A DNA stretch of 35,049 bases from assembly GCA_964370615.1 (NCBI GenBank), contig CAYJJY010000001.1:1-35049 (forward strand), given 5' to 3'. Both the position numbers and the translations under genes were made by a program. Shown in pieces: positions 5,855 through 33,297 of the stretch. This DNA comes from an uncultured Muribaculaceae bacterium (GTDB lineage: Bacteria > Bacillota_I > Bacilli_A > RF39 > UBA660). Position 1 is the stretch's first letter; every line of letters begins with the position of its first letter. The notes beneath the pieces were generated by a model. That model ran no database searches. It was given only the letters and a program-made list of their open reading frames with translations, and had not been told where the DNA came from.

Positions 5855-6601
5855 TCAACACCCCCTACAAGTAATTATTTTTTCATTATCTAAATTTATT
5901 AATACACTTCCATCAAGGGCTGTTTGATAAATAACTGAGTTTTTTAAATTATCTAACACTTGTTGATTTGGATGCCCATAGCGGTTATTTTCACCAACTG
6001 ATATCAAACTTATTTGGGGGTTTATTTTTTCTATAAATGATAAGCTACTACTTGTTTTAGAACCATGATGCGCTACTTTCAAGTAATCTATTTGCGGTAA
6101 ATTATAATTTTTTAATAAATTTAGTTCTGCTTTTTCTCCAATATCTCCAGTAAATAAAAGATTTTTATTATTAACATTGATTAATAAGACTAAACTATCT
6201 TCATTCTCATCATTATATGCTTGATTTATAAATTTGAGTGTGTGATTATCTACTTTTAATTCTGCTTCACTTATGTTTATATAATCTGTTTTAGAATTTA
6301 TAATTTCTAATTCTTTATAGTTATTATTGTAACTATTTAAAATTATTTTATTTACTTTAAAATTATTTATTAAGTTTAGAGCTTCTCCTAAGTGATCTTG
6401 ATCGCCGTGACTTAAAATTAAATAATCTAATTTATTAATACCTCTACTTTTTAAATATGGAATTATTTTATTTAGTGCCATGTTATAACTTTCTTTATAT
6501 GCCCATCCTTCACTATAATTTAGGACACCTCCTGTATCGATTAGAATGTTGGTGTTGTTGAGTTCTAGTAAGAAACAATCACCTTGTCCTACATCTATCA
6601 T
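5855..6601 (-). CDS. comEC: ComEC C-terminal metallo-beta-lactamase domain fragment
   Basis: 248-aa ORF with MBL motifs DVGQGDC, SHGDQDHLGE and AHHGSKTSSS. It has no SD and no independent N-terminus. The frame stays open for 10 codons upstream of the ATG, where it meets a T7 homopolymer (plus-strand 6627-6633). Confidence 0.85.
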   Translation of the reverse strand: MIDVGQGDCFLLELNNTNILIDTGGVLNYSEGWAYKESYNMALNKIIPYLKSRGINKLDYLILSHGDQDHLGEALNLINNFKVNKIILNSYNNNYKELEIINSKTDYINISEAELKVDNHTLKFINQAYNDENEDSLVLLINVNNKNLLFTGDIGEKAELNLLKNYNLPQIDYLKVAHHGSKTSSSLSFIEKINPQISLISVGENNRYGHPNQQVLDNLKNSVIYQTALDGSVLINLDNEKIITCRGC

Positions 6602-6740
6602 TGTTAAATAATTGCCGGGTATTATATTTTTTTATATTTAGATGAATTATAAGAATTATCATTAAAACTATATATTTATTTTTTTTAAGACTTAATGTAA
6701 TTATTATAAAATATAAAATAATTATATAAATATTGTAAAA

Positions 6741-7841
6741 TTAAAAAGAAAAAATAAGTCCGTAATCATTAAAAAAAAGACTTAAGCTTTCTAATGTGGT
6801 AGTTAAAAAAGTAATATCAATAGGAATTATTAATGTTATTAGTAATAGTGGGAAAATAAAATATGCTATTAAGGGGACAAAAATTAAATTTAAAATGATA
6901 CTTAAAAAGTTTAAATAATAAAAATTCATCATTAAAATGGGGATGCTTACTACAAAACAAACAAATGATGTTTTCAATAGTTTTTTTAGGTAATTATTTT
7001 CATTGGGGGGGAATTTTAATAAATAGAAAGTTATAGTGAAACTAAAAATAAAACCGATATCGTATATTATAAAAGGATTATATAATAGTAGTATAAATGC
7101 TATTAGAAATAACAAATCTTGATTATTTATTTTATTTTTAAAAACAAAACAACCTACTGCTCTTATTATTGATGGTGTGAAATTAGCTAAGAATGCATAA
7201 AATAGCAAAAATATTGATATTACAGTGTGTTTTTTTATTACTTTTGATACTATATTTACTAATAATGTTACGTGCATACCTGATAGAGCTAGTAAATGAC
7301 TGATACCATTCAATTGAAAAGAGTTAGTTATTTCTTCACCTAAGTAACTTTTATCTCCTAAGATAAAGGTATTTAAATAGTTTTGGTTAGGGTTGTTATT
7401 AATATGGGTTTTCAAATTATTTTTTATTGTATATAGTAAATTATTATTTTCTTTTGTTTTTTTTATTTCTGTAGCATCTAAAATATAGTATATTTTTTTA
7501 CTTTTTAAATAATCTTTATAATTAAATTGATTAAATAAAGTATTTTCGGAAGGATAACTTAAATTGCCTGTTACTTTTAAATAGTCACCTAATTGAAATG
7601 TTTCAAAATGTTTTTTTTCTGCTTCTGAATCTAGATAGTAATTTATTATTATTTCTTTTGAGACTATCACTACTTTATCTCCAGTTATTTCGATATTTTT
7701 TATAATTAATTCAGTATCAATTGAACCAATGTTATAGTTTGTTTTATAAATATCTTTACTAATTACTATAAAACAGTAAATAATTATACTAAATAGTAAT
7801 ATTATTTTTAATCTTTTGGAAAGTTGCATCTCCGATTCCAC
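6741..7841 (-). CDS. comEC: ComEC N-terminal (OB-fold/DUF4131-like plus Competence membrane domain) fragment
   Basis: 366-aa polytopic membrane ORF containing the ComEC/Rec2 core (LNGISHLLALSGMHVTLL). Follows comEA. Alternative ATG start at 7829. Ends at an in-frame TAA (6741-6743), after which the same frame stays open. Confidence 0.85.
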   Translation of the reverse strand: MESEMQLSKRLKIILLFSIIIYCFIVISKDIYKTNYNIGSIDTELIIKNIEITGDKVVIVSKEIIINYYLDSEAEKKHFETFQLGDYLKVTGNLSYPSENTLFNQFNYKDYLKSKKIYYILDATEIKKTKENNNLLYTIKNNLKTHINNNPNQNYLNTFILGDKSYLGEEITNSFQLNGISHLLALSGMHVTLLVNIVSKVIKKHTVISIFLLFYAFLANFTPSIIRAVGCFVFKNKINNQDLLFLIAFILLLYNPFIIYDIGFIFSFTITFYLLKFPPNENNYLKKLLKTSFVCFVVSIPILMMNFYYLNFLSIILNLIFVPLIAYFIFPLLLITLIIPIDITFLTTTLESLSLFFNDYGLIFSF

Positions 7842-8445
7842 TTACTTCCATTATTTCTTCAATTGTTTTGAAATTCCCATTTTCTTCTCTGTATGTTATG
7901 ATGGCTTTTGCTTTTGATTCTCCTATTCCACTTAATGTCATTAGTTGTTCTAGTGTTGCTTTATTAAGTGAGATTTTACTATTGTCTTCAGTTTCTGTTA
8001 TTGGTTCTTCTATACAAGCAATATTTTCTGGTAACTCAGGGCAGTAACATTCTGTTTCAATTATTTTAACACTTGTTTCTCCTGATGTCATCACTTCTAT
8101 TTCTTGTTTTGAGTAGATAATTATAACATCTTCATCATGTAATATTTTGCTTAAGTTAATTACTGTTGTATCTGATTTTTCTGTGAATCCACCACTTTCA
8201 TTTATAGCATCAATTACCCGACTATTTGCTTTCAATTCATATATTCCAGGATTAACTACCTCTCCTTTGATATCAATTTTTATGGTTTGAATTTCGTTTT
8301 CTAGTGTGGGTGTTGGGGTTGTAGTCATAATGGGTTCATTTTTTGGAATAATTAATATTAAAACAATTATAAGTGGGATTAGTAATAAGCAATACTTGTA
8401 CTTTAATAATTCGTATTTTTTTATATAATATTTTATATGATTCAT
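7789..8445 (-). CDS. comEA: competence protein ComEA (SLBB plus helix-hairpin-helix DNA-binding)
   Basis: N-terminal TM anchor, SLBB-like GEVVNPGIYELKANSRVIDAINESGG, and a C-terminal HhH pair (LNKATLEQLMTLSGIGESKAKAIITYREENGNFKTIEEIMEVSGIG). SD TAGGAGGTGA. Confidence 0.92.
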   Translation of the reverse strand: MNHIKYYIKKYELLKYKYCLLLIPLIIVLILIIPKNEPIMTTTPTPTLENEIQTIKIDIKGEVVNPGIYELKANSRVIDAINESGGFTEKSDTTVINLSKILHDEDVIIIYSKQEIEVMTSGETSVKIIETECYCPELPENIACIEEPITETEDNSKISLNKATLEQLMTLSGIGESKAKAIITYREENGNFKTIEEIMEVSGIGDATFQKIKNNITI

Positions 8446-18485: not shown

Positions 18486-20339
18486 TTATGGTTTTACTAT
18501 GAAATTAATATTGGCTGCTTTTTCACTTGAATTATTGAAGTTTAAAGCGTCTTGGGTTGTTTTAGCATAGGCTGTTGTGACTTTAGTTGTTTGGGTAAAC
18601 ATTTTTGAGAAATCATTTACTTTACTGGTATCAAAACTACTTAAATCGAGTGTTTCTAATCTTGTTGCATAATTAAACATTCTAGTCATCGTTGTGACGT
18701 TACTGGTATCGAATGATGTTAAAATGATATTTTTAGCTGCAGAACCTGAAAACATTACGGCCATACTTGTTACTTTACTAGTATTAAAATTACTTAAATC
18801 TAAATTTTCTAAACTGTACATGTACCCAAACATTTGAGTCATCGTTGTGACGTTGCTGGTATCAAAAGAGCTCACATCTATAGTTTTTATTTTTGACACA
18901 TTAGTAAACATATAATTCATGTTAGTTACATTTTTTGTGTTGAAGGATGTTAAATTTATATCTGTAAGACTAATTGTACTGGCAAACATATTAAGCATAC
19001 TTGTTACTTTACTGGTATTAAAATTACTTAAATCTAAAGTTGTTATAGATTGAACATTATTAAACATATTGGTCATATTAATAACATTTGATGTGTCTAT
19101 AGATGATAAATCCAGACTTAATAATTTACTGTTATTTTGAAATAAATATGACATATCGGTAACATTACTTGTATCTAAAGCATTGTTAAAGTTTATATTT
19201 TCTAAAGCGATAAATTTACAAAATAATGATTTGTATTGATTATTATAAGTTGTACAATACCCTCCTAATTTTTCATGAGCAATAATTTTTCCGTTTGATT
19301 CTATATTAAGAATTTGTCTTCCTTCTACTTCTTCAATGTAACCAACAACAACTTCATTATTATCTTCTGATAAATCCCATTTAATTGTAGCTGTTTCATA
19401 TTTACCACTTTTACTTGATAAAAAATTTATTTCTTTTATTGTATCACGATAAGTTCCAATTTTATTTTGAAATTCTTCACCACTTATCATTAAATTAGGT
19501 TCGGTAATTGTGATATTGATAGATTTTGTTACTTTTAAATTGTTGTTACCATTTGCTGTACATGTCACTTGATTTAATCCATCTTTTAATTCTATGGTAT
19601 TATTAAAATCACACAATAATTCACCACCACTTATTCCGAAAGAATATGTGAAAAATTCTTTTATTTCGTTGTTTGTATTTTTTAATAGTGTTATATTCAG
19701 TTCTTTTGCTTCTAAAACCGGTGTGGTTTTATCTAGTTTAAATTCTTGGCAAACAACTTCTGATTGTTTTCCGTAATTTTGCGCTACAGCACAAACGGTA
19801 TGGACACCTTCTTCTACTATTAAAATTTCACCTGTTTTATTGGGTATACATTCAGTGTTACTAACACAATATTGGTATGAATTTCCATTCGTAATTACAT
19901 TTACTTTTATATCTTCATTGTACCAATTAAAAGTATTACTAATTTCGATTGTTACTTTATAACTGTCATTATCATCATCCGGGTTACATTCTTCTTCATA
20001 CTTGAAATCATATTGGGAAATTTCGTTTTTCCAAGCATAAACTATACAACCTTCTAAAGTTTCATTGGTTAGAGGATTTTTGGGTATTTCATTAATGAAA
20101 CCATCATCTATTAATTCTTCAAATTCTATTGTCTTATAATTATTATTTTCATAACCTAAATTATTTTTTGTTGAAAAAAGGGTTGCTTGTTTGATTAATA
20201 TATTGATTTGTTCTTCATAAGCTACCTGCTTTGATTCATTTATAATACTGTTAACAATTGGGGTTGCTATAGCTAAAATTATACCTAAAATAACTAATAC
20301 TCCAAGTAATTCTACTAATGTGAATGCTTTTTTCATCAT
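18486..20339 (-). CDS. type IV prepilin-like N-terminus fused to Ig-like segments and about 9 DUF285 (BspA-type LRR) repeats
   Basis: MMKKA/FTLVELLGVLVILGIILAIATPIV is a class III (prepilin) signal with Glu at +5. The C-terminal half has ~25-aa repeats (LDLSNFNTSKVTSMLNMF, LTSFDTSNVTTMTRMF ...) typical of DUF285. Confidence 0.85.
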   Translation of the reverse strand: MMKKAFTLVELLGVLVILGIILAIATPIVNSIINESKQVAYEEQINILIKQATLFSTKNNLGYENNNYKTIEFEELIDDGFINEIPKNPLTNETLEGCIVYAWKNEISQYDFKYEEECNPDDDNDSYKVTIEISNTFNWYNEDIKVNVITNGNSYQYCVSNTECIPNKTGEILIVEEGVHTVCAVAQNYGKQSEVVCQEFKLDKTTPVLEAKELNITLLKNTNNEIKEFFTYSFGISGGELLCDFNNTIELKDGLNQVTCTANGNNNLKVTKSINITITEPNLMISGEEFQNKIGTYRDTIKEINFLSSKSGKYETATIKWDLSEDNNEVVVGYIEEVEGRQILNIESNGKIIAHEKLGGYCTTYNNQYKSLFCKFIALENINFNNALDTSNVTDMSYLFQNNSKLLSLDLSSIDTSNVINMTNMFNNVQSITTLDLSNFNTSKVTSMLNMFASTISLTDINLTSFNTKNVTNMNYMFTNVSKIKTIDVSSFDTSNVTTMTQMFGYMYSLENLDLSNFNTSKVTSMAVMFSGSAAKNIILTSFDTSNVTTMTRMFNYATRLETLDLSSFDTSKVNDFSKMFTQTTKVTTAYAKTTQDALNFNNSSEKAANINFIVKP

Positions 20340-20920: not shown

Positions 20921-22615
20921 TTACATCTTTGTTGGTATTTCTATTATTAATAGATTTAACATATCTTTGATTAATTGATTTGTATATTTTATTAATAATA
21001 GCCATTGTTGTTTTTTTGTTTCTTCTTGACCGATCATATGATTCGTTTGATAAAAACTATTACAATTTACTGATAAATCATAGATAAATTCAGCGATATG
21101 ATTCGGCATTTTTTCATTGAATGCTGAATTAATATATTTTTCAAATTGTAATAATTTGATTCGTAAATCTCGATCTACATCATTATATATTAAATTATTT
21201 AAATTTTCAATATCTATTTGTTCATTTTTTAAAATTTTATTCATTCTTAAATATGTATATAGTATGTATGGTCCTGTTTTACCAACGACATTTGAAAATT
21301 TTTCGATATCAAATATATAATCTTTCTCACGATTGTTTTGTAAATCAGCAAATTTTATAATAGCATTCATTATTTTATTAATGTCTTCTTCTTGCATGTC
21401 TTGATTTGATTCTTTTATACTTATAAATACTTCTTTTACTTGATTAAATAAATCATCTAATTTAAATGCTTCACCACTTCTTGTTTTAAATGGTTTTCCA
21501 TCGCTTCCATTTACAGTTCCGTAATCTAAGTGTTTTAAACCAATATTTTTGGTAATTCCCCATTTGTTACAGGCTCTAAATACTTGTTCGAAATGGAGTG
21601 ATTGTCTGTTATCAACTATATATAAGATATTATTTACATTAAATTGTGTTACACGTTCATAAATGGAACCCATATCAGTTGTTCCGTATAAATAGGCTCC
21701 GTTACTTTTTTGGAATAATAATGGTGGTATTTCTTTTTTATCTTCTTTTTCTTCAACTTCTATTACTAAAGCATTATTACTTTCTTTAAGAATGTTTTTA
21801 TCTAATAAATCTTTTTTTATTGTTTCTATATATTTATAAGAATCACTTTCACCTAACCATAAATCAAATTCTACACCTAGGAAGTCGTAAATTCTTTTTA
21901 TGTCTCCGATAGATACTTCACAAATTTTTTGCCAAATTTCATGATATTCTTTATTTCCTTCTTGTAAATCTTTAGTGATTTTCGCACATTTTTCTAAAAT
22001 AACTTCGTCTTCTTTACATAGTTTACTCATTTTAGGGTATGTTTTATCTAAGTATTCTAATGTTATTTCTTCTAATTTTAAATTATCACTTATAACTCCA
22101 TAAATTACTTGTCCAATTTGTAATCCATAATCACCTAAGTGAACATCACTTATTGTATTATGTCCCATAAATTTAATAATTCTTTTGATTGATTCACCTA
22201 TTATAGCTGTTCTTAAATGACCAACATGTAATGGTTTGGCTATATTAGGTCCACCATAATCTAAATAATATGTTTCTATATGTTCTGGTTTTTTTAGGTT
22301 GTAATTTTCACTATTAAACATTTTATTTATTTGATTATTTATGAATTCATCACTTAAAGTTATGTTGATGAAACCTGGTTTTACAAATTCTACTTTTGTA
22401 AAATAGTCATTAAAATTTTCTATTGTGTTGATGTTATTTACAATTTGTTCGCCAATTTCAATTGGTGATTTTTTGTAAATAGCTGCTAGTTTAAATATAT
22501 CATCACTTTGATAATCACATAAATCAGGTCGATTTGAAATAATTACTCGTGGGTTATATTCATATCCACTTTCTTTAAAGATATTTGCTAAGATATTTTG
22601 TAATAATTCAATCAT
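20921..22615 (-). CDS. argS: arginine--tRNA ligase
   Basis: 564 aa with the class I HIGH-type motif (PNIAKPLHVGHLRTAIIGESI) and a C-terminal DALR anticodon-binding region ending ...IIEIPTKM. Confidence 0.95.
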   Translation of the reverse strand: MIELLQNILANIFKESGYEYNPRVIISNRPDLCDYQSDDIFKLAAIYKKSPIEIGEQIVNNINTIENFNDYFTKVEFVKPGFINITLSDEFINNQINKMFNSENYNLKKPEHIETYYLDYGGPNIAKPLHVGHLRTAIIGESIKRIIKFMGHNTISDVHLGDYGLQIGQVIYGVISDNLKLEEITLEYLDKTYPKMSKLCKEDEVILEKCAKITKDLQEGNKEYHEIWQKICEVSIGDIKRIYDFLGVEFDLWLGESDSYKYIETIKKDLLDKNILKESNNALVIEVEEKEDKKEIPPLLFQKSNGAYLYGTTDMGSIYERVTQFNVNNILYIVDNRQSLHFEQVFRACNKWGITKNIGLKHLDYGTVNGSDGKPFKTRSGEAFKLDDLFNQVKEVFISIKESNQDMQEEDINKIMNAIIKFADLQNNREKDYIFDIEKFSNVVGKTGPYILYTYLRMNKILKNEQIDIENLNNLIYNDVDRDLRIKLLQFEKYINSAFNEKMPNHIAEFIYDLSVNCNSFYQTNHMIGQEETKKQQWLLLIKYTNQLIKDMLNLLIIEIPTKM

Positions 22616-22931
22616 TTATTTCCTCCAATGTATATTTTATTTTTTCGCCACCTAAAACTTTATATTCTATGTGGTAGTGGTTATTATTTATAATTTTATC
22701 AGTTTTTATTTCAATTGTAAATTTTTTATTTTCGATTTCACAAATATTTTTTGTTATAGTTTTTTCTTTGAATTTTAAATTTAATTTATATGTTTTATTT
22801 TTTCTTGTTATGATGTTTTTTTTTGTATCAACGACAACTATAAATTCTTGGTCTTTGTATGTATATATATTATCTTTTTTTATGGCTTTATAGGTGTTTT
22901 TTTTATCGTTTAAAGTTATTAAAATATTCAT
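22608..22931 (-). CDS. DUF1934 domain protein (YwiB-like)
   Basis: 107-aa beta-rich small protein overlapping the argS start by 8 nt. Same position as ywiB upstream of argS in Bacillus. Confidence 0.65.
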   Translation of the reverse strand: MNILITLNDKKNTYKAIKKDNIYTYKDQEFIVVVDTKKNIITRKNKTYKLNLKFKEKTITKNICEIENKKFTIEIKTDKIINNNHYHIEYKVLGGEKIKYTLEEIND

Positions 22932-22979: not shown

Positions 22980-23003
22980 AAAAAAAGAAGTATCTTACTT
23001 CTT
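22980..23003 (-). terminator. intrinsic terminator after the OapA-like gene
   Basis: Minus strand AAGAAGTA-AGA-TACTTCTT followed by a T-run. Overlaps the TAA stop. Confidence 0.7.
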
Positions 23004-23552
23004 CAGTGTTAATATATTGGAAAATGTATATAATATCTCATTACTTTTATTTATGGCAATTGATTTGCACATTGCTTTTCCACCGATTGTAAGTGCTGCT
23101 ATTATTGCTGTTACAATTAGTGTCACGATAAATAAATCGATATAAAATGTATTTGATATTGTGATTGAGATACTTATCCCAACGCTTCCTGATATAATCC
23201 CACAAACATCACCAATAACATCGTTACAAAATGATGCTACTCTATCGGCATTTTTTTTAAGTTTAACTGCCATTTTCGCCCCTCTTATTTTACGAGAACT
23301 CATTGAATGAAATGGTGCTTCATCTGCTGTTGTTACTGCTACTCCTACCATATCAAACATTATTCCAAATGATATAAACAGTATTAGTATTATTATAGCT
23401 ACAAAGAAGTTAACTTGCGGGATGAATGTTTCTGATAATCCTGATAGACAGAAACTTATTATGAAAGCTATGATTGTAACTTTAAATATCCAGTTAAAAT
23501 CTACTATTTTTTTTTCTTTTTTTTCGATTTGTTTTTTTATTTCTTTTTTCAT
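22995..23552 (-). CDS. oapA: small four-TM DUF21/CNNM-transmembrane-like protein; candidate OapA (OLE-associated protein A)
   Basis: 185 aa. After a basic N-terminus come 4 hydrophobic segments. Central ADEAPFHSMSSRKIRGAKMAVKLKKNADRVASFCNDVIGDVCG resembles the DUF21 core and contains DVIGD (DxxxD). Lies immediately downstream of the large ncRNA. SD AAGGAGAAAT. Confidence 0.55.
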   Translation of the reverse strand: MKKEIKKQIEKKEKKIVDFNWIFKVTIIAFIISFCLSGLSETFIPQVNFFVAIIILILFISFGIMFDMVGVAVTTADEAPFHSMSSRKIRGAKMAVKLKKNADRVASFCNDVIGDVCGIISGSVGISISITISNTFYIDLFIVTLIVTAIIAALTIGGKAMCKSIAINKSNEILYTFSNILTLKK

Positions 23553-23565
23553 ATTTCTCCTTAAT

Positions 23566-24172
23566 AAAAAAAGAGTTATAAACTCTGTAAATGGCTTTTA
23601 ATACAGTAAACTTTACGTCTTTAGGTCAAGTTGGATTTCCCTTGATTTAACTTACCGTTACCAGTAAAGCGGTTCCCCTTTAATAAATCAAATACGTTGT
23701 TACCAATCGTATGACTTGATTGCCACTTAGTACGCACTGCAATCCTATATTAAGCACTCTAGGAAATTTCTCCCCCGACTGTTTATTATTAATTCTTTTT
23801 TGCAAGATATGTTTCAATGAGCAATTCTAATTTAAGTTAGCTAAACTATAAATTATAAGATCTCATATTCCCATATTTCACGCAAGACAAGCTACACTAC
23901 TCGTAACTTTTCGCCACATAGTAGGTTTAATCCTAATTCGTCATTAATCCATCAACATGGTGTGTATAGGTTAATAACAAGTATAGGTCTCCGCAAGTAG
24001 TTGGGTCAATTGCGCATGCCATTGCGGTTGCCCAAAAACTCTTTCTTCCAGCACTCACCCTAAACTGGGCGTATAAAGCAAGCACAAGAAGCTTCACAGG
24101 TATGCTCTATTAATGGTGGTTTAATCCCATCTTCATAATAAACATTATCGACTAGAATAATGTGCCATTCCG
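23566..24172 (-). ncRNA. ole: large (~600 nt) structured non-coding RNA; best contextual fit OLE RNA (unverified)
   Basis: No ORF of 60 aa or more in any frame. GC about 37% by hand count, versus the mid-20s for the flanks. Own consensus promoter (24179-24207). 5' GAATGGC (24170-24164) pairs with 3' GCCATTT (23595-23589). A terminator hairpin lies at 23572-23586 plus a T-run. Ends are approximate. Confidence 0.6.
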
Positions 24173-24178
24173 TAAATA

Positions 24179-24207
24179 ATATTAACATATTTTTAAATTT
24201 ATGTCAA
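24179..24207 (-). promoter_or_regulatory. near-consensus sigma-A promoter driving the large ncRNA
   Basis: Minus strand TTGACA, 17 nt, TAATAT with a TG extension (aTGtTAATAT), directly after the upstream gene's terminator. Confidence 0.7.
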
Positions 24208-26741: not shown

Positions 26742-26768
26742 AAAAAAATATAAGAATTAATTCTTATA
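26742..26768 (-). terminator. intrinsic terminator after the prepilin-LRR gene
   Basis: Minus strand TATAAGAATT/AATTCTTATA perfect palindrome followed by T7, starting right after the TAA stop. Confidence 0.75.
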
Positions 26769-27821
26769 TTAGTTTGGAAGTTCATAATACTTATCTGCTG
26801 TTTCTATTGTACAATTCAAATCAGTATCACTATGAAATTTTATAGTTTTACAATAGAAATTAGAAACATCACAAGCGATATCATGAATACCATAAAATTG
26901 TTCATTAAAGAGCCATGAGAATGAATCATTAAATGGGCTTATAAGTTGATTATTATCTACATTTAAACAGCTATCTTTGATATAGATATCCATATTTTTC
27001 AATTCCATAACAACTGGAGCAAAAACCGAATCTCCTAAATTGCTATTAGTAGATAATGTTATCTTTTCTAGATTAGTACCTTCAAAAGCTGCATCTGCTA
27101 TTGTTGTTACACTATCAGGCATTTCGATTTCTGATAGTAAAGTATATGAAAAAGCATACAATCCAATTTCTTTAATGTTATTATTAATCTTAACACTTTC
27201 TATTACAAAACCATCTTCTTCATATCTTGCAAAAGCATATGAATTATTTGATGTAATATGATTTTCAATTTCTCCTACAGTTGATAAACCTATTTTATTA
27301 ACTTCAATACCACCAATAGTACATGGTATTACTGGACTTGTATCTGTTCCAATATAAGCTAAAATAGTATTGGTGTTTTTATCAAAAATAAAGTCACTAT
27401 CGGGATTAGCTTCATTTTTCCAACTGTCATAATTATCGCAACTATAAGCATAATCAAACTCTATTTCACAATTTTCAGAATATTCAAATTGATATTGATT
27501 AATATTATTTTGCCAAGAATACAGAATACATCCTTCCAAAGTTTCTCCTGTTATTGGGTTTTCAGGGATTGTTTGAATTAAACCTGAATTAATCAAGTCC
27601 TGATATTGAATTGATTTTTTGGTACTACTTGTACCTAATGAATTTTGTACTGAATATTTTAGAGCTTGATCTAGTAAAAGATCTATTTGCGAGTCGTAAG
27701 CTGATTGTTTTGAATTATTTATGATACTATTAGTTACTGGGACAATAATTGCAATTATAACACCTAAGATAACTATAACTGCTAGTAACTCTACTAATGT
27801 AAAGGCTTTTTTTACATTCAT
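26769..27821 (-). CDS. type IV prepilin-like N-terminus fused to a BspA/LRR_5-type leucine-rich repeat domain
   Basis: MNVKKA/FTLVELLAVIVILGVIIAIIVPV prepilin signal. The first ~120 aa are paralogous to the 18486-20339 product. The C-terminus has LRR_5-like repeats (IKEIGLYAFSYTLLSEIEMPDSVTTIADAAFEGTNLEKITL). ATG at 27821. Confidence 0.8.
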   Translation of the reverse strand: MNVKKAFTLVELLAVIVILGVIIAIIVPVTNSIINNSKQSAYDSQIDLLLDQALKYSVQNSLGTSSTKKSIQYQDLINSGLIQTIPENPITGETLEGCILYSWQNNINQYQFEYSENCEIEFDYAYSCDNYDSWKNEANPDSDFIFDKNTNTILAYIGTDTSPVIPCTIGGIEVNKIGLSTVGEIENHITSNNSYAFARYEEDGFVIESVKINNNIKEIGLYAFSYTLLSEIEMPDSVTTIADAAFEGTNLEKITLSTNSNLGDSVFAPVVMELKNMDIYIKDSCLNVDNNQLISPFNDSFSWLFNEQFYGIHDIACDVSNFYCKTIKFHSDTDLNCTIETADKYYELPN

Positions 27822-27846
27822 GATAACCACTTCTCTATCTTACAAT

Positions 27847-27875
27847 ATATTATCACACATTTTAAATTTTATCAA
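27847..27875 (-). promoter_or_regulatory. sigma-A type promoter for the prepilin-LRR gene
   Basis: Minus strand TTGATA, 17 nt, TAATAT with a TG extension. Confidence 0.6.
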
Positions 27876-27903
27876 ATAAAAATATAAGAATTACTTCTTA
27901 TAT
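27876..27903 (-). terminator. intrinsic terminator after rnj
   Basis: Minus strand ATATAAGAA-GTAA-TTCTTATAT followed by TTTTTATTT. Overlaps the TAA stop. Nearly identical to the terminator at 26742-26768. Confidence 0.75.
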
Positions 27904-29544
27904 TTCATGAACTGTTGTTAAGATAACAGGTTTAGATTCTGTTTCTTGATAAAAATATTTACCAACTTTATCTCTAATTTGATTTTTAATTTTACTATAA
28001 TCAGCATATCCTGTTTTAGTATTATCTTTTATAGCTTCTTGACATAATTTTGTTGCTTCTATGATTAGTTCTTCATTTTCTTTCATGTAAACAAATCCTT
28101 TAGTAACAATTTCAGGTCCATAGATAATTTCTTTTGTTTTTTTATCTAAAACGGCATTGATTAATACTATTCCACTTTCCCCTAGCATTTCACGGTCTTT
28201 TATTACTATTTCACCGATATCTCCTAGAGTTTTACCATCTATTAATATTTCATCTACTTTTATATTTTTATTATCTGGTACTAATTTACCATTTACAAAA
28301 GTAGTAACTTGTCCATTGATGCTTAAAACGATTGATTCATCATTATAACCAACTGTTTTAGCTACATCACTATTAGCTACTTGATGACGATATTCTCCTA
28401 TTACTGGGAAATAATATTTAGGATTTAGAAGTGATAACATCATCATTAAATCTTCACTTGATGCATGAAGGGCTAAATACTTTTTACTAGACATAGGGAT
28501 TAGGTCACACCCTAATTTAGCTATATCATCAAATAATTTAGTAGCACTTCTTTCAGTTCCATCATGAATTGGTGAGGCAAAGATTATTGTATCCTCACTA
28601 TTTAAAGTAATAAATTTATCATATCCTTTAACGATTCTTTTAATATTAGAAAATGGTTTTTCTCTTTCATCTGAGATTAAAACTACAACATTATCTTCTT
28701 TAATATTATGAATGCTTGATATTCTTTTACGGTCAAAGTTCAAATAATTTTGTTCAATCATACTTAAGATTGATTTTTCTAAACGTTTACCTAAAATTAC
28801 TACTTTACGATCAGTTTCACTAATAGCATTAAATATATCATTAATACGATAGTTTTGAGTTTGGTAAATATTTATTAAAATTCTTTTTTCTTTTTTATAA
28901 ATAATTTCTTTAAAAAAGTTATAGCTACGGTGATTTGGAGATGTAAATCCTCTTTTTTCTGCAAAAGTTGATTCTGCTAATAAGCATAATACTCCTTGTT
29001 TTCCAACATAGGCTAATTTACCAATATCTGTTTTATAACTATCTTGTAGAGTTGAATCAAATACAAAGTTACCTGTATAAACAATTGCTCCATCTTTTGT
29101 ATATAATACATATCCTACTGTATCTGGAGAATCATTAGATAATCTAATTGGGAAAACAATATATTTACCTACTTTGATTTTTTGATGTGGGTTTGATTCC
29201 ACTAAATTCGTTTGTGGTAAACCTTCTTGAATTAATTCTTCTTTCAAGATATCTAATGTAAATTTTGTTCCATATACTTTAGTTTTTGTTAAATCTCTTA
29301 ACATATCTGGTAATGCTCCGATATGTTCATCGTGACCATTAGTTACAAATATTCCTTTGATTCTATTTTCATTATTTTTTAAGTATGTATAATCTGGTAA
29401 GATATAATCTACACCTAACATATTATCATCAGCATATTTTAATCCTGAATCAAATACAAAGATATCTTTATCTATTTCAACTACATACATATTTTTACCG
29501 ATTTCATTTAATCCGCCTAGAGCGAATATATTTATTTTACTCAT
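27898..29544 (-). CDS. rnj: ribonuclease J
   Basis: 548 aa; IFALGGLNEIGKNMYVVE, the MBL motif TNGHDEHIG, a beta-CASP region and a C-terminal domain. SD AAAGGAGGAAAAA. Confidence 0.95.
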   Translation of the reverse strand: MSKINIFALGGLNEIGKNMYVVEIDKDIFVFDSGLKYADDNMLGVDYILPDYTYLKNNENRIKGIFVTNGHDEHIGALPDMLRDLTKTKVYGTKFTLDILKEELIQEGLPQTNLVESNPHQKIKVGKYIVFPIRLSNDSPDTVGYVLYTKDGAIVYTGNFVFDSTLQDSYKTDIGKLAYVGKQGVLCLLAESTFAEKRGFTSPNHRSYNFFKEIIYKKEKRILINIYQTQNYRINDIFNAISETDRKVVILGKRLEKSILSMIEQNYLNFDRKRISSIHNIKEDNVVVLISDEREKPFSNIKRIVKGYDKFITLNSEDTIIFASPIHDGTERSATKLFDDIAKLGCDLIPMSSKKYLALHASSEDLMMMLSLLNPKYYFPVIGEYRHQVANSDVAKTVGYNDESIVLSINGQVTTFVNGKLVPDNKNIKVDEILIDGKTLGDIGEIVIKDREMLGESGIVLINAVLDKKTKEIIYGPEIVTKGFVYMKENEELIIEATKLCQEAIKDNTKTGYADYSKIKNQIRDKVGKYFYQETESKPVILTTVHEI

Positions 29545-31184: not shown

Positions 31185-32822
31185 TTAATTGAAAGTCTTG
31201 TCTTCTTCTTTTTTTATTGTGAAGTTTTCAGTTAAATTCAAATCAATATTAAATTCCATAAATACAATATTGTTTATTTCCTCATTGGTAGCACCAAATT
31301 CTTTTAGTTTTTCAACCATTTTTAAAATTTCCTTAGTATTGTCATCCAAATTTGATTTTGTCATTTGAATTGTAGAAGTTGTTTTGTTTATGTGAGTGTT
31401 GATGTTATTTTGGTTTTGTCGATTGTCATTTGATTTAGCAGGTGAATTATTTTCATCATATTTTTTCATTTCTTGAATCACTTTGTTATCATAACAAAAT
31501 TTATACTTACATATATTTTCCTTTTCAGCATTAATACTTATCTTTTCTTTTACTGTGTTAATAAAATCTTTATCTACTCTCATTATATTCTCACTCATTT
31601 TTGCTAATATTGTTTTGAAATCTTTAGCTTTAACGTCTATTACTACATTTTCACTAATCTGAGATGAAGATATAATTTCTTTCGAATTAATCGAACTTTC
31701 TAATCTACTTATTAATTTAGGTTTAAAGAAAGAGATTATTCTATGTTTGAAATTATCAGAGTTAATATATGGTTTTAATTTAATTTCTTCAAAAATTCCT
31801 TTGGATAATTTTTCTTTATTTAGAATTTTTCCCTCATATGGTCTGAGATTTGAATTAAAACGTTCTACAACACTTTCTGCTAAAACCATAGCTAAGTATT
31901 CATCAAGAGAAATATTGTTTCCATTATATGAAACTTTCATATTTTGATTACTACGAATCCAATTTATAATTTCACCAGTTATTGTTTCATCAATTATTTT
32001 GCTTCTAACCTCGTTATAAGAACGTTTTTTTCCTTTAGAATCAGGTGACGGTTCAGAACCATAACCAATCCATCCATCTATTTTACCAACTAATAGAGGC
32101 GGTTGTTTTAACCCTAAACTTATATTTGAATTTTTCATTTTAATTTTTTGTAAAATATCAATATAATCTTGAAGATGTTTATTATCACTATAAATAACTA
32201 TAGTATCACATCTATTACCAACTATATCATATTTAAAATAATATGGAATATTTAACTTTTCACATTCTTTAATGAATAAATCGCATATATCTATTGTTAT
32301 GTTTGAATCCGAGTTTATATATAAACGATTTTTTATAGCAGGAAGTGCTGTCGTTCCTATCTTATTTTTTTCCGACATTACATGTTGCCATGATGAATCT
32401 CTCCCATCCTTATCCCATCTATGCTTTTCCATTGCTATTTTTAATTTTGAATCAGAATAATTACTATCCATGATGTCATCAGCTTCTTTTTTTGTCTTTA
32501 CATCTGGAACTTTTTTTAAAAACTCTCTTAATACTATAAAATCATCATTAATTTTCCCATAATTGCGCAAACTTATTCCTTGTTCTCTTGTCATATTAAC
32601 TATATGATTTTTCCATGAATTAAACCTTTCAATATAAAATTTTTCATTATTTTTGGAAAGAATTCTAATCACCTTGCCGTCGATATTACTTTTAACAAGT
32701 CTAGTATAAAAATCTTTTTGTGTAGATTTAGATGAATAAGTTTCGAAATAAATTTCCAACAATTTTTTTACTGTTTCTTCATTCAAAGGATTTTCAATAT
32801 TATCATATATATCTTTTAGCAT
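31185..32822 (-). CDS. hypothetical 545-aa protein; central region weakly resembles a HopA1/OspF/LanKC-lyase-type domain
   Basis: Residues ~160-290: KNRLYINSD...IPYYFKYDIVGNRCDTIVIYS...GWIGYGSEPSP...KRSYNEVRSKIIDETI resemble the K-x-Y-x-N / FK / R-x-D-x-V-x-Y / G-x-x-x-E-P...S-F-G..R pattern of that family. Low-complexity N/Q/T linker near the C-terminus. Translationally coupled to the upstream ORF. Confidence 0.6.
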   Translation of the reverse strand: MLKDIYDNIENPLNEETVKKLLEIYFETYSSKSTQKDFYTRLVKSNIDGKVIRILSKNNEKFYIERFNSWKNHIVNMTREQGISLRNYGKINDDFIVLREFLKKVPDVKTKKEADDIMDSNYSDSKLKIAMEKHRWDKDGRDSSWQHVMSEKNKIGTTALPAIKNRLYINSDSNITIDICDLFIKECEKLNIPYYFKYDIVGNRCDTIVIYSDNKHLQDYIDILQKIKMKNSNISLGLKQPPLLVGKIDGWIGYGSEPSPDSKGKKRSYNEVRSKIIDETITGEIINWIRSNQNMKVSYNGNNISLDEYLAMVLAESVVERFNSNLRPYEGKILNKEKLSKGIFEEIKLKPYINSDNFKHRIISFFKPKLISRLESSINSKEIISSSQISENVVIDVKAKDFKTILAKMSENIMRVDKDFINTVKEKISINAEKENICKYKFCYDNKVIQEMKKYDENNSPAKSNDNRQNQNNINTHINKTTSTIQMTKSNLDDNTKEILKMVEKLKEFGATNEEINNIVFMEFNIDLNLTENFTIKKEEDKTFN

Positions 32823-32823
32823 T

Positions 32824-33297
32824 TTATTCTTCTCCTTTAACTAATGGTATTTTTTGTGCTAATTGTATTATATCATATAATCCATTTAGCTTTTTGATCA
32901 ACTCTAATTGAAATTCATAGCTACCTACTATTTTAAATTTATGATTATACTCTATCTCCCAATATTCTTTTCCTACTTCTTCGATTAAATAATTATTCCC
33001 CAAATCTCTTAAGTCGTACATTGCAAGCATTTCTATTATCTCATCTGGAATTATGAACGAATCTACATCAATCACTATTTGTTTATTTTGTTCTAAGCTG
33101 TACATAGTATGTGTTAGTAATACTCTCAAATCATCCTCTTTAAAAATAATTTCAAATGAACTACAATAATGATGTGATGCATCATTTTCATTTGTATCCA
33201 AATAAAAATGTGTATATTTCAGATGTTCTAATGTAAATTTATTTCTCTTAATTATTGGTTTTATATTTTTATCAAATTCAAAATTTTCATATTCCAT
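32824..33297 (-). CDS. hypothetical 157-aa acidic protein
   Basis: ORF with SD AAGAAAGGTAGGA. Its TAA stop is 1 nt from the ATG of the 545-aa gene. No family recognised. Confidence 0.6.
   Translation of the reverse strand: MEYENFEFDKNIKPIIKRNKFTLEHLKYTHFYLDTNENDASHHYCSSFEIIFKEDDLRVLLTHTMYSLEQNKQIVIDVDSFIIPDEIIEMLAMYDLRDLGNNYLIEEVGKEYWEIEYNHKFKIVGSYEFQLELIKKLNGLYDIIQLAQKIPLVKGEE

Follow-up and report, generated by a model that had tools for sequence, protein, structure and literature searches.

Introduction

Modular type IV pilins, as described by Raynaud et al. (2021, PNAS; PMC8179133), are a recently recognised route to many binding functions on one filament. Few of them have been studied, among them PilB and PilC of Streptococcus sanguinis, in which the pilin is joined to a vWA domain and to a lectin, respectively, and PilB is an adhesin by experiment (PMC8179133). 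The survey in Dataset S1 of the same work contains 18 proteins with the combination IPR012902-IPR026906, plus 6 with two copies, and 9 proteins with the combination IPR012902-IPR005046, plus 4 with three copies (PMC8179133). We confirmed the InterPro identities of the two partner domains, IPR026906 being the BspA-type leucine-rich repeat (LRR) and IPR005046 being DUF285. No experimental study of any pilin-LRR_5 protein was found in the literature searched. The other partner, in the form of PARCEL/DUF285 repeats, is known from surface lipoproteins of Mollicutes and Listeria (Roske et al., 2010; PMC2996958). The PilY1/PilC tip adhesins of diderm type IV pili are conserved carriers that show variable effector modules at the filament tip (PMC8179133).

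Here we analysed a 35,049-nucleotide stretch of DNA, referred to as the window, which encodes two modular prepilins, referred to as p1 and p2. p1 is genuine but unremarkable as a new case of modular pilins, a concept that is already published (PMC8179133). The locus is a clean natural case of one carrier with two different cargoes about 6 kb apart. Searches that started from it uncovered a large and so far unannotated scaffold family, in which the fusion point is fixed and the replacement of cargo is traceable on a tree.

The p1 gene and its product

The p1 gene lies on the reverse strand, and its neighbours in the window are the genes of RNase J and ApbE. The gene, its flanking signals and the segments of its product are as follows.

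26769..27821, reverse strand: p1, a 350-aa modular prepilin gene with a pilin module and a BspA-type LRR module, stop codon included (ORF list, translation, Pfam N_methyl and LRR_5)
27878..27904, reverse strand: AT-rich terminator hairpin that overlaps the stop codon of RNase J, the upstream copy of a 27-nt direct repeat (repeat finder, folding)
27847..27875, reverse strand: promoter-like site TTGATA-17-TAATAT with extended TG, located after the RNase J terminator and ahead of the p1 start (consensus scan)
27804..27821, reverse strand: class III signal-peptide leader MNVKKA, residues 1-6, with a predicted prepilin-peptidase cut between Ala6 and Phe7 (sequence KKA/FTLVE)
27468..27803, reverse strand: mature pilin module, residues 7-118, with the hydrophobic alpha1N, the conserved Cys98 and Cys118, and a predicted fold of one long alpha1 helix and a small beta head (AF2, family conservation, profile match)
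27399..27467, reverse strand: junction and linker, residues 119-141, where the similarity to all relatives stops (junction alignment, AF2)
27015..27269, reverse strand: Pfam LRR_5 (BspA-type leucine-rich repeat), residues 185-269 (Pfam E 5.6e-13)
26772..27014, reverse strand: Cys-rich C-terminal tail, residues 270-350 (C285, C317, C324, C337), without family assignment (AF2, homologue search)
26744..26770, reverse strand: AT-rich terminator hairpin that overlaps the stop codon of p1, the downstream copy of the 27-nt repeat (repeat finder, pattern search, folding)

The p1 start is an ATG at 27821, from which MNVKKAFTLVE is read; the longer version in the ORF list starts with a GTG at 27830. The open reading frame runs through 350 codons without interruption in DNA of 25% GC. 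The peptide strings quoted for p1 and p2 in an earlier, sequence-only reading of the window are identical to the translation. The two copies of the 27-nt direct repeat around p1, located with a repeat finder, are 96% identical and 1134 nt apart. As hairpins, the copy at the end of the RNase J gene folds with a dG of -9.8 kcal/mol (z -3.7) and the one at the end of p1 with a dG of -6.5 kcal/mol (z -3.9), and a hairpin pattern search found two sites in the window, compared with 0.05 expected. The hairpin sequence at the p1 cassette in the RNase J-ApbE interval is ATATAAGAANTAATTCTTATAT. As the 22-nt hairpin was found in none of 85 related loci, it is not a widespread repeat element among those sequences. 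A consensus terminator scan around p1 gave no match because it demands G+C-rich stems; direct folding revealed the AT-rich hairpins. The promoter-like site is only suggestive, since such sites are not above shuffle expectation in number.

The N-terminus of p1 is composed of the short basic leader MNVKKA followed by FTLVELLAVIVILGVIIAIIV, which has Phe at position +1, Glu at position +5, and then about 21 hydrophobic residues. Pfam N_methyl (PF07963) matches residues 1-26 with 25.1 bits (cutoff 21.2) and TIGR02532 scores 24.0 (cutoff 16.3). Both curated cutoffs are thus exceeded, as is expected of a type IV pilin with a class III signal peptide (PF07963, TIGR02532, IPR012902). The residue at position -1 is Ala instead of the canonical Gly, as it is in 20% of the family described below. 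AF2 models the pilin module with a pLDDT of 92.5, placing a helix at residues 9-60 and strands at residues 69-71, 98-104, and 109-115; the model confidently predicts a pilin-like lollipop topology. Among solved structures, the family profile matches PilE1 (8pfb, E 3.9e-7), GspG (5wda, E 9e-6), and MshA (over positions 1-106), the match to these solved pilins and pseudopilins being to alpha1 only. For the globular part, residues 60-118, no sequence or structural relative was found among solved structures. Foldseek with the pilin module alone gave no significant pilin match in the PDB, only noise with E > 2, which we do not count against the pilin assignment because lollipop-shaped pilin models match poorly by Foldseek.

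Past the pilin module, the AF2 pLDDT drops from about 95 to below 50 at linker residues 120-127 and then climbs again. Hence, the model predicts a short linker between the pilin module and the extra module, as is typical of modular type IV pilins. The LRR-like module probably starts near residue 142 (FIFDKNTNTILAYIG...VIPCTIGGIEVNKIG), and its opening is the usual BspA-type start (…ILAYIG…VIPCTIGGIEVNKIG). The LRR_5 match (PF13306) has 49.3 bits against a cutoff of 27.7 and an E-value of 5.6e-13, above the gathering threshold; it is a single stretch covering 83 of 127 profile positions, and the array is short, with roughly four repeats. The top 12 Foldseek matches of the region, which is modelled at a pLDDT of 56-88, are all BspA-type LRR proteins, and they are weak (E >= 0.011; query-normalised TM 0.15-0.24). 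The following residues, 264-350, are nearly all at a pLDDT below 50. By eye, the tail is similar to the C-terminal caps seen in other pilin-LRR proteins (for example P0006 and P0011), and the even number of Cys residues in p1, eight, is compatible with disulfide pairs. A search of 5.8 billion proteins with the C-terminal module alone returned no close homologue or orthologue, the best match having 34% identity over 46% of the query. Therefore, ligand and function are not transferable to this module from any relative. p1 thus has an IPR012902 module and a non-filament domain, N_methyl and LRR_5, in one open reading frame, which is the defining combination of modular type IV pilins.

Comparison of p1 with p2

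The second modular prepilin is encoded on the same strand and is composed as follows.

18486..20339, reverse strand: p2, a paralogous 617-aa modular prepilin (ORF list, Pfam, NCBIfam, pairwise comparison)
19986-20339, reverse strand: p2 pilin module, residues 1-118 (pairwise comparison with p1)
Downstream of the p2 pilin module: a recurrent middle segment, residues 121-290, then DUF285/PARCEL repeats at about residues 385-590

Pfam recognises N_methyl and DUF285 in p2, the latter with 177 bits against a cutoff of 25 (E 1.2e-52), and TIGR02167 (PARCEL) finds eight stretches of the tandem 26-residue repeats with 172 bits against a cutoff of 30 (E 8.5e-52). p2 also has an NCBIfam match to NF045896 and resembles a Mbov_0838-type lipoprotein.

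The N-terminal 120 residues or so of p1 and p2 had been described as about half identical by eye. The tblastn comparison within the window agrees, with 56% identity over 117 aa (E 3e-43). The similarity extends beyond the hydrophobic helix, as p1 residues 36-121 still align with p2 residues 35-120 at 51% identity and 76% positives (E 4e-32), and it stops directly after Cys98...Cys118, at the Cys pair where the sequence-only reading had placed its end. That reading had also assigned a distinct LRR domain to the C-terminus of p1, which the LRR_5 score above its curated cutoff bears out, and had given p2 a cargo of Ig-like plus DUF285 segments. The DUF285 part stands; the Ig-like label gained no significant Pfam match in residues 121-290 of p2. 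This middle segment recurs in 51 of the 186 family proteins examined. When compared alone, the C-terminal parts of p1 and p2 are unrelated (best E 0.16), which ruled out the related C-termini suggested by a full-length BLAST alignment that had reached residue 259 (37% identity, 280 columns).

The two genes had been taken to occupy unlinked loci. They are in fact only 6.4 kb apart on the same strand, with nine protein-coding open reading frames and an OLE RNA between them. p1 and p2 are separate transcription units, not distant loci. The window has exactly two copies of the module, whose DNA is 66% identical across 327 nt. The duplication is therefore old rather than a recent gene conversion.

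The module family and proposed exchange of cargo

Relatives of the module of about 120 aa were collected by an exhaustive HMMER search and a full-length search; a word-indexed search with residues 30-121 gave no match because of an index limit. By the exhaustive search, uncultured gut Bacilli have a large family of such proteins, which forms 427 clusters at E<=1e-10. The module is N-terminal in 150 of the 150 best representatives of these 427 clusters, and the matches listed are 108 to 2201 aa long. We then tallied 151 proteins, which are the best 150 of the 427 representatives together with P0005. Phe+1 and Glu+5 are present in all 151 of them, Pro28 in 149, C98 in 149, and C118 in 130. Position -1 is Gly in 119 and Ala in 30-31, and the leader is mostly 4-6 aa long. 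Every family-invariant pilin residue is kept in p1.

Aside from N_methyl, 90 of the 151 proteins together match 22 Pfam families, including LRR_5 (18), DUF285 (7), Flg_new (6), Bact_surface_Ig-like (6), ALK_LTK_GRD (5), Dockerin (4), CarboxypepD_reg (3), and PT-HINT (2). Stand-alone members of at most 160 aa account for 37 of the 151, and those of about 120 aa are candidate major subunits. In the junction alignment, the family junction is always directly after the second conserved Cys, Cys118. The sequence motifs, the domain composition, the modularity throughout the family, and the position of the junction are all shown directly. The genes are orphans scattered among housekeeping genes, outside pilus operons, and at least four copies lie on two contigs of one genome (GCA_964369245.1). 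In the contig scan, the best locus has only 43% identity in the module, and the closest backbone relative of the window, L002, has a SigA 85% and a DnaG 62% identical to its counterparts here.

The claim that one pilin scaffold is combined with alternative C-terminal modules is supported by p1 and p2 themselves, and the family at large supports it far more strongly. The N-terminal module of p1 is 71% identical to that of P0002, a DUF285-bearing pilin of another metagenome-assembled genome (MAG), compared with 55% to that of p2. It nests in a clade that otherwise has DUF285 throughout, with moderate neighbour-joining bootstrap values of 69% and 61%. This nesting suggests, as direct though moderate evidence, that the C-terminal module of p1 was replaced. 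We propose that the family diversifies by swapping whatever follows the second Cys, and that each of its genes travels as a cassette of its own among housekeeping genes.

Discussion

We read p1 as a modular type IV pilin that is most likely a minor pilin of low abundance, and assign this reading a probability of about 0.6. The weak LRR fold match, the very low confidence of the model over the final 80 residues or so, the C-terminal module without close homologue, and the Ala at position -1 weigh against it. The class III signal peptide (MNVKKA/FTLVE) would be cleaved by a prepilin peptidase whose gene lies outside the window, elsewhere in the genome, and the hydrophobic helix alpha1N would keep mature p1 in the membrane. 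The compact module of about 112 residues, probably disulfide-stapled through Cys98-Cys118, would allow p1 to be loaded into a type IV filament built from stand-alone family members of about 120 aa. As the cargo is bulky, loading would probably take place at the filament tip. The BspA-type LRR module would then be displayed away from the cell and could bind a gut ligand, either protein or glycan, and p2 may follow the same scheme with its PARCEL/DUF285 module. The domain families carried by the family pilins suggest a putative adhesin role. We only infer filament incorporation and adhesion, because the 35-kb window has no PilB/PilC/PilD, comG, T2SSE or T2SSF genes.

Part of the evidence would also suit a pilin-like surface anchor without filament assembly, with signal peptide and pilin domain acting as a general export-and-anchor device. 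The proteins would be tethered by alpha1N or reside in short pseudopili, and would show LRR, PARCEL, Ig, and dockerin modules in the manner of lipoprotein or LPXTG anchors. An analogue of such anchor-only display is the archaeal 'bindosome', whose sugar-binding proteins have class III signal peptides. The orphan position of the genes among housekeeping genes instead of in pilus operons and the several copies per genome (at least four in GCA_964369245.1) favour an anchor, and so do the DUF285/PARCEL modules, which are lipoprotein-borne in Mollicutes (NF045896 match; PMC2996958). Family members of 1500-2200 aa have fn3, Ig-like, and Flg_new arrays typical of generic cell-surface proteins. With up to 2201 aa and many fn3, Ig, and Flg_new domains, such members would be awkward cargo for a filament, and for the very long ones a plain surface-anchor role is no less fitting than a filament role. 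However, the globular head and the Cys pair show strong conservation (149 and 130 of 151) that would be superfluous in a protein serving as a membrane anchor only, and conservation of the head suggests subunit-subunit packing. The stand-alone members of about 120 aa (37/151) look like filament subunits, and the MAG with P0003 and P0004 has a PilC-like platform gene (T2SSF) alongside a PilD gene (Peptidase_A24) about 6 kb from one pilin gene. We regard a role as anchor only as rather unlikely.

A broader and more speculative proposal, which we consider doubtful, is that the compact disulfide-stapled pilin domain is a general carrier for much of the surface proteome in small-genome, low-GC gut Bacilli, with single-gene cassettes that hop from one intergenic site between housekeeping genes to another and swap cargo at a fixed junction after the second Cys. 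The cargo concerned comprises adhesin-like LRR and PARCEL modules, Ig/fn3 and Flg_new arrays in proteins of up to 2201 aa, as well as dockerins and PT-HINT toxin-type modules. If true, pilin-based surface display would functionally replace sortase or lipoprotein anchoring, and the possibility of pilus-delivered toxins could be raised.

Returning to p1 as a minor pilin, the filament in question might instead be the DNA-uptake pilus, in which p1 and p2 would be ComG-type minor pilins acting with the ComEA (7789-8445) and ComEC (5855-7841) of the window. This is hinted at by NCBIfam, where ComGC, ComGE, ComGF, and ComGD match the N-terminal 50-79 residues weakly, and by gene order in two related loci: in L056 a stand-alone 128-aa family pilin is directly upstream of comEA-comEC, and in L076 a family pilin copy cut by the contig end is just downstream of comEA-comEC. 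The scores, though, cover the helix only and are all far under the equivalog cutoffs (ComGC 26.9 vs 75, ComGE 24.4 vs 49, ComGF 20.1 vs 80, ComGD 14.2 vs 70), and the window has no comGA/comGB operon context. Moreover, LRR, PARCEL, and dockerin-like cargo has no known role in DNA capture, and the ComEC of the window is split into two open reading frames in different frames and may be defective. ComG-type identity was dropped as the main reading on account of the scores and the operon context, and we deem it improbable. It is more improbable still that p1 is a decaying, non-functional paralogue that lost a DUF285 cargo for a short degenerate LRR fragment and junk: its C-terminal module without close homologue, its single LRR_5 stretch, and the low pLDDT of residues 264-350 would fit, but the unbroken frame in AT-rich DNA with its own promoter-like site and terminator, the family-invariant pilin residues all kept, the usual BspA-type opening, the cap-like tail, and the even Cys count argue otherwise.

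The analysis could improve the annotation of many 'hypothetical' surface proteins of gut MAGs, and yields candidate host- or microbe-binding factors in organisms beyond present culture. In addition, the junction after Cys118 defines where to cut so that the cargo domains can be produced on their own for binding assays.

Comparison with known systems

PilB and PilC of S. sanguinis are like p1 in having an N-terminal class III signal peptide, a small pilin module, a short linker, and a domain that is not pilus-specific. They differ in cargo, which is vWA and lectin in PilB and PilC and LRR_5 and PARCEL in p1 and p2, and in gene context: PilB and PilC are encoded inside a pil operon, p1 and p2 by single-gene cassettes that stand as orphans among housekeeping genes. 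Also unlike PilB and PilC, p1 and p2 have as their pilin module a compact scaffold that is specific to their lineage, has a conserved Cys pair, and is reused on 22 Pfam families.

BspA-type LRR surface proteins are attached as lipoproteins, via T9SS, or via choline-binding domains. The group, which provides the top, though weak, structural matches to p1, includes BspA of Tannerella forsythia, TpLRR of Treponema pallidum (6mlx), pneumococcal PcpA (4cp6), and LRR proteins of gut Bacteroides and Eubacterium (4fdw, 4fs7, 4h09). p1 shares with them the typical opening motif ahead of the first repeat, and differs in its attachment by a pilin module, its short LRR array, and the unassigned Cys-rich tail that follows. 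Among the pilins and pseudopilins, ComGC, GspG, and PilE1 are like p1 in leader, F+1/E+5, alpha1, and a similarly small pilin head, and unlike it in that the equivalog scores of p1 are far below cutoff. A C-terminal disulfide is unusual among monoderm pilins. p2 has the same repeats as the PARCEL lipoproteins of Mollicutes and Listeria, but on a prepilin module instead of a lipoprotein signal peptide. Finally, PilY1 is unlike p1 in that it is not a pilin and docks by a beta-propeller on the minor-pilin complex, and the two have no sequence relationship.

Two prepilin genes with a common N-terminal module

Two genes of the window encode proteins with the same N-terminal scaffold of ~120 residues (N-module, or pilin module), followed after its second Cys by different cargo:

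26769-27821, minus strand: p1, intact ORF of 350 codons
18486-20339, minus strand: p2, 617 aa

Every other long ORF of the window (G+C 25%) also lies on the minus strand. Read from the ATG at 27821, p1 begins with MNVKKAFTLVE, as quoted in the sequence-only reading; a mechanical ORF list places its start at the GTG at 27830. The N-modules of p1 and p2, the only two copies in the window, are 56% identical across 117 residues (E 3e-43). The likeness reaches beyond the hydrophobic helix, p1 36-121 and p2 35-120 being 51% identical and 76% similar (E 4e-32), contrary to the refuting case named in the sequence-only reading, a likeness limited to that helix. Their DNA is 66% identical across 327 nt; hence, the duplication is old and does not reflect a recent conversion. 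Beyond residue 121, the two proteins are unrelated (best E 0.16). A long gapped BLAST alignment was rejected as a sign of C-terminal kinship, as the N-module alone carries all of it.

Pfam identifies N_methyl and LRR_5 in p1 (LRR_5 at residues 185-269, E 5.6e-13, 49.3 bits where the cutoff is 27.7), and N_methyl and DUF285 in p2 (E 1.2e-52). The DUF285 region is described in NCBIfam as PARCEL repeats (TIGR02167, 8 stretches). The observation behind the sequence-only reading is confirmed, and its interpretation of one pilin scaffold combined with alternative modules is supported. Two details need correction: the loci termed unlinked are 6.4 kb apart, and the Ig-like label given to p2 residues 121-290 is without significant Pfam support in p2 itself.

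Family and architecture of the pilin module

We searched 1.84 billion cluster representatives exhaustively with HMMER using p1 residues 1-121, and obtained 6239 proteins at E<=1e-3; 427 of them reach E<=1e-10, and 8 reach E<=1e-30. The module is N-terminal in 150/150 of the matches listed, whose lengths are 108-2201 aa. These 150 and the family protein P0005 were tallied; 37/151 have at most 160 aa, and 95/151 have more than 300 aa. Pfam cargo in 90 longer proteins comprises LRR_5 (18), DUF285 (7), Flg_new (6), Bact_surface_Ig-like (6), ALK_LTK_GRD (5), Dockerin_1 (4), CarboxypepD_reg (3), PT-HINT (2), and fourteen other families, while the largest family proteins bear arrays of fn3, Ig-like, and Flg_new domains. 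The related loci come overwhelmingly from gut MAGs (human, rabbit, mouse, sheep, and goat samples) whose labels are uncultured Bacilli, Tenericutes or Erysipelotrichia; the nearest backbone relative among them is L002 (SigA 85%, DnaG 62% identical).

Residues 121-290 of p2 (window 19470-19979), right behind the pilin module, recur in 51/186 family proteins in an iterated HMM search, including proteins among P0037-P0182. This segment has the look of a shared stalk or adaptor domain that links pilin and cargo. Some scaffold proteins carry PT-HINT (2 proteins), Hint_2 or Intein_splicing (2 proteins) domains, which are hallmarks of polymorphic-toxin cassettes, and four others carry type I dockerins.

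The p1 leader MNVKKA precedes FTLVE and a run of 21 hydrophobic residues, and together they constitute a class III (prepilin) signal with Ala at position -1. Gly occupies this position in 119 of the 151 proteins and Ala in 30-31, and Phe+1 and Glu+5 are invariant. In AlphaFold2, residues 9-118 have a pLDDT of ~95 in the full-length model, and the module modelled alone reaches 92.5. It consists of a helix (9-60), a short strand (69-71), a short helix (73-78), and a β-hairpin (98-104/109-115). The first hairpin strand starts with Cys98, and Cys118 follows shortly after the second one; these two cysteines are present in 149/151 and 130/151 proteins, respectively. The confidence drops sharply at the junction (residues 120-127), returns to 56-88 in the LRR part (130-260), and stays below 50 nearly throughout the Cys-rich tail (264-350). 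Foldseek with the full model gave weak matches only (E >= 0.011). BspA-type LRR surface proteins fill all of the first twelve places, with TpLRR (6mlx), BACOVA (4fdw and 4fs7), EUBVEN (4h09), PcpA (4cp6), 4gt6, 4fd0, and 4oju. The pilin module alone had no meaningful Foldseek match. Its profile significantly matched α1 of solved type IV pilins and pseudopilins, namely S. sanguinis PilE1 (3.9e-7), GspG (9e-6), and MshA (across positions 1-106).

Probable cargo exchange in the p1 lineage

The N-modules nearest to that of p1 belong to P0002-P0005 (59-71% identity), which have DUF285 in 4/4 cases and LRR_5 in none. A neighbour-joining tree built from 59 N-modules places p1 with these four (bootstrap 69%) and joins this group to p2, P0037, P0038, and P0040 (bootstrap 61%). 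Every member of this clade but p1 contains DUF285. The clade members can be aligned through the second Cys and diverge immediately beyond it, where they continue with the LRR, directly with DUF285, or with the recurrent middle segment and then DUF285. The p1 cargo has no residual similarity to those of its clade relatives (best E 0.17), and no close homologue of it was found in a collection of 5.8 billion proteins, the best match covering 46% of the query at 34% identity. Most simply, the p1 lineage would have exchanged an ancestral DUF285 cargo for another one; because the bootstrap support is only moderate, we regard this as likely rather than proven.

Genomic context and probable movement of the pilin genes

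The window is a housekeeping region, in which RNase J, ApbE, ArgS, and RpoE were recognised by eye:

First two groups: S7, S12, NrtR-like regulator, SigA, DnaG; ComEC, ComEA
Next groups, up to p2: Na/Ca exchanger, DivIVA, SepF; class II tRNA synthetase, RecO, Era, YbeY, VanZ, YqfD, YqfC, YlbD
Between p2 and p1: RpoE, ArgS, OLE RNA, ApbE
After p1: RNase J, rubrerythrin, Fur, CNNM, TGT

Genes for a prepilin peptidase, an assembly ATPase or a platform protein are absent from the 35-kb window. With AT-rich hairpin-plus-T-run terminators on both sides and a promoter-like site at 27875-27847, p1 looks monocistronic. A 27-nt direct repeat including the AT-rich terminator hairpin occurs at 26744-26770 and, 1134 nt away, at 27878-27904, with 96% identity between the copies. 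One overlaps the p1 stop codon and the other that of RNase J, so that they bracket exactly the p1 cassette. They are the only two in the window, against 0.05 expected by chance, and no such repeat was found in 85 related loci. The pair may be an insertion or duplication footprint, and looks like the trace that a single-gene cassette would leave on entering at the RNase J terminator.

In related genomes, pilin-module genes hold different positions within the shared housekeeping backbone:

L010, 4701-7290: two modular copies between RecO and tRNA synthetase
L039, 6001-6417: stand-alone 138-aa copy between PheT and YqfC-YqfD, near, not at, the p2 position
L056, 6001-6387: pilin gene directly upstream of comEA-comEC (slot FtsW/ComEA)
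L002, 5992-6372: pilin gene upstream of DnaG-SigA (slot YetF-like/DnaG)
L014, L027, L068: family pilin gene directly downstream of an OapA-like gene

This distribution suggests that pilin cassettes of one gene each are often gained, lost or relocated. At least four pilin-module copies lie on two contigs of the MAG GCA_964369245.1, each amid housekeeping genes, and a T2SSF gene and a Peptidase_A24 gene lie ~6 kb from one of them. At this locus (L081, 15168-17845), the PilC-like T2SSF protein beside the prepilin peptidase is unusually long (637 aa). Within 10 kb, the listing has no T2SSE ATPase. Directly after the L081 pilin gene P0003 come a DUF87 protein of 590 aa and a protein of 543 aa without Pfam match.

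Several other features of the window were recorded. The OLE (Ornate Large Extremophilic) RNA at 23575-24184 (minus strand) is full-length (355 bits where the gathering score is 50, model 1-616 of 616), and is neighboured by ORFs at 22995-23552 and 22608-22931. The 185-aa ORF directly downstream has a sub-threshold CNNM/DUF21-type match, as expected of the OLE-associated protein OapA. ComEC is split into two ORFs (5855-6601 and 6741-7841, minus strand) in different frames, 139 nt apart, one part having DUF4131 and Competence and the other Lactamase_B; ComEA is at 7789-8445. L056 has its ComEC homologue in one ORF of 702 aa. The split in the window could be due to a frameshift in a pseudogene, to a gene in two parts or to faulty assembly. 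The sole Pfam match of a 545-aa ORF (31185-32822, minus strand) is a weak one to the HopA1 effectors (E 4.4e-5; 23.9 bits where the cutoff is 22.7), and the adjoining 157-aa ORF (32824-33297) has no Pfam match.

Proposed role of p1

In the best-supported reading, p1 is a minor type IV pilin of the modular kind. Its motifs, its domains, and the modularity throughout the family are observed here; S. sanguinis PilB (PMC8179133) is the analogue from which processing, polymerisation, tip location, and binding are inferred. A prepilin peptidase would cleave p1, α1N would keep it in the membrane, and p1 would then be loaded into a filament built of stand-alone family members, where its LRR module would be presented for ligand binding. 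In the main rival reading, the pilin module would serve for export and membrane anchoring only. Family members of 1500-2200 aa and the orphan gene context fit such an anchor, but the globular head is strongly conserved, stand-alone members exist, and a relative has a PilC-like gene. ComG scores below threshold and the lack of an operon make a role in the Com pilus unlikely, and p1 is unlikely to be a decaying gene, as its ORF is intact and the invariant residues are fully kept.

Relation to known modular pilins

Modular pilins were defined by Raynaud et al. (2021), who reported over 1200 proteins with 264 architectures (PMC8179133). Their Dataset S1 contains IPR012902-IPR026906 (18 proteins) and IPR012902-IPR005046 (9 proteins), IPR026906 being the BspA-type LRR region and IPR005046 being DUF285. 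Hence, both architectures of the window have already been catalogued. The searched literature contains no experimental study of a pilin-LRR_5 or pilin-DUF285 architecture. Our analysis adds a specific Cys-stapled scaffold family, its scale in gut Bacilli, a traceable cargo replacement, and cassette-like behaviour. Rather than establishing a new principle, p1 and p2 offer an example that is useful and well defined, and they open the way to a large family that lacks annotation.
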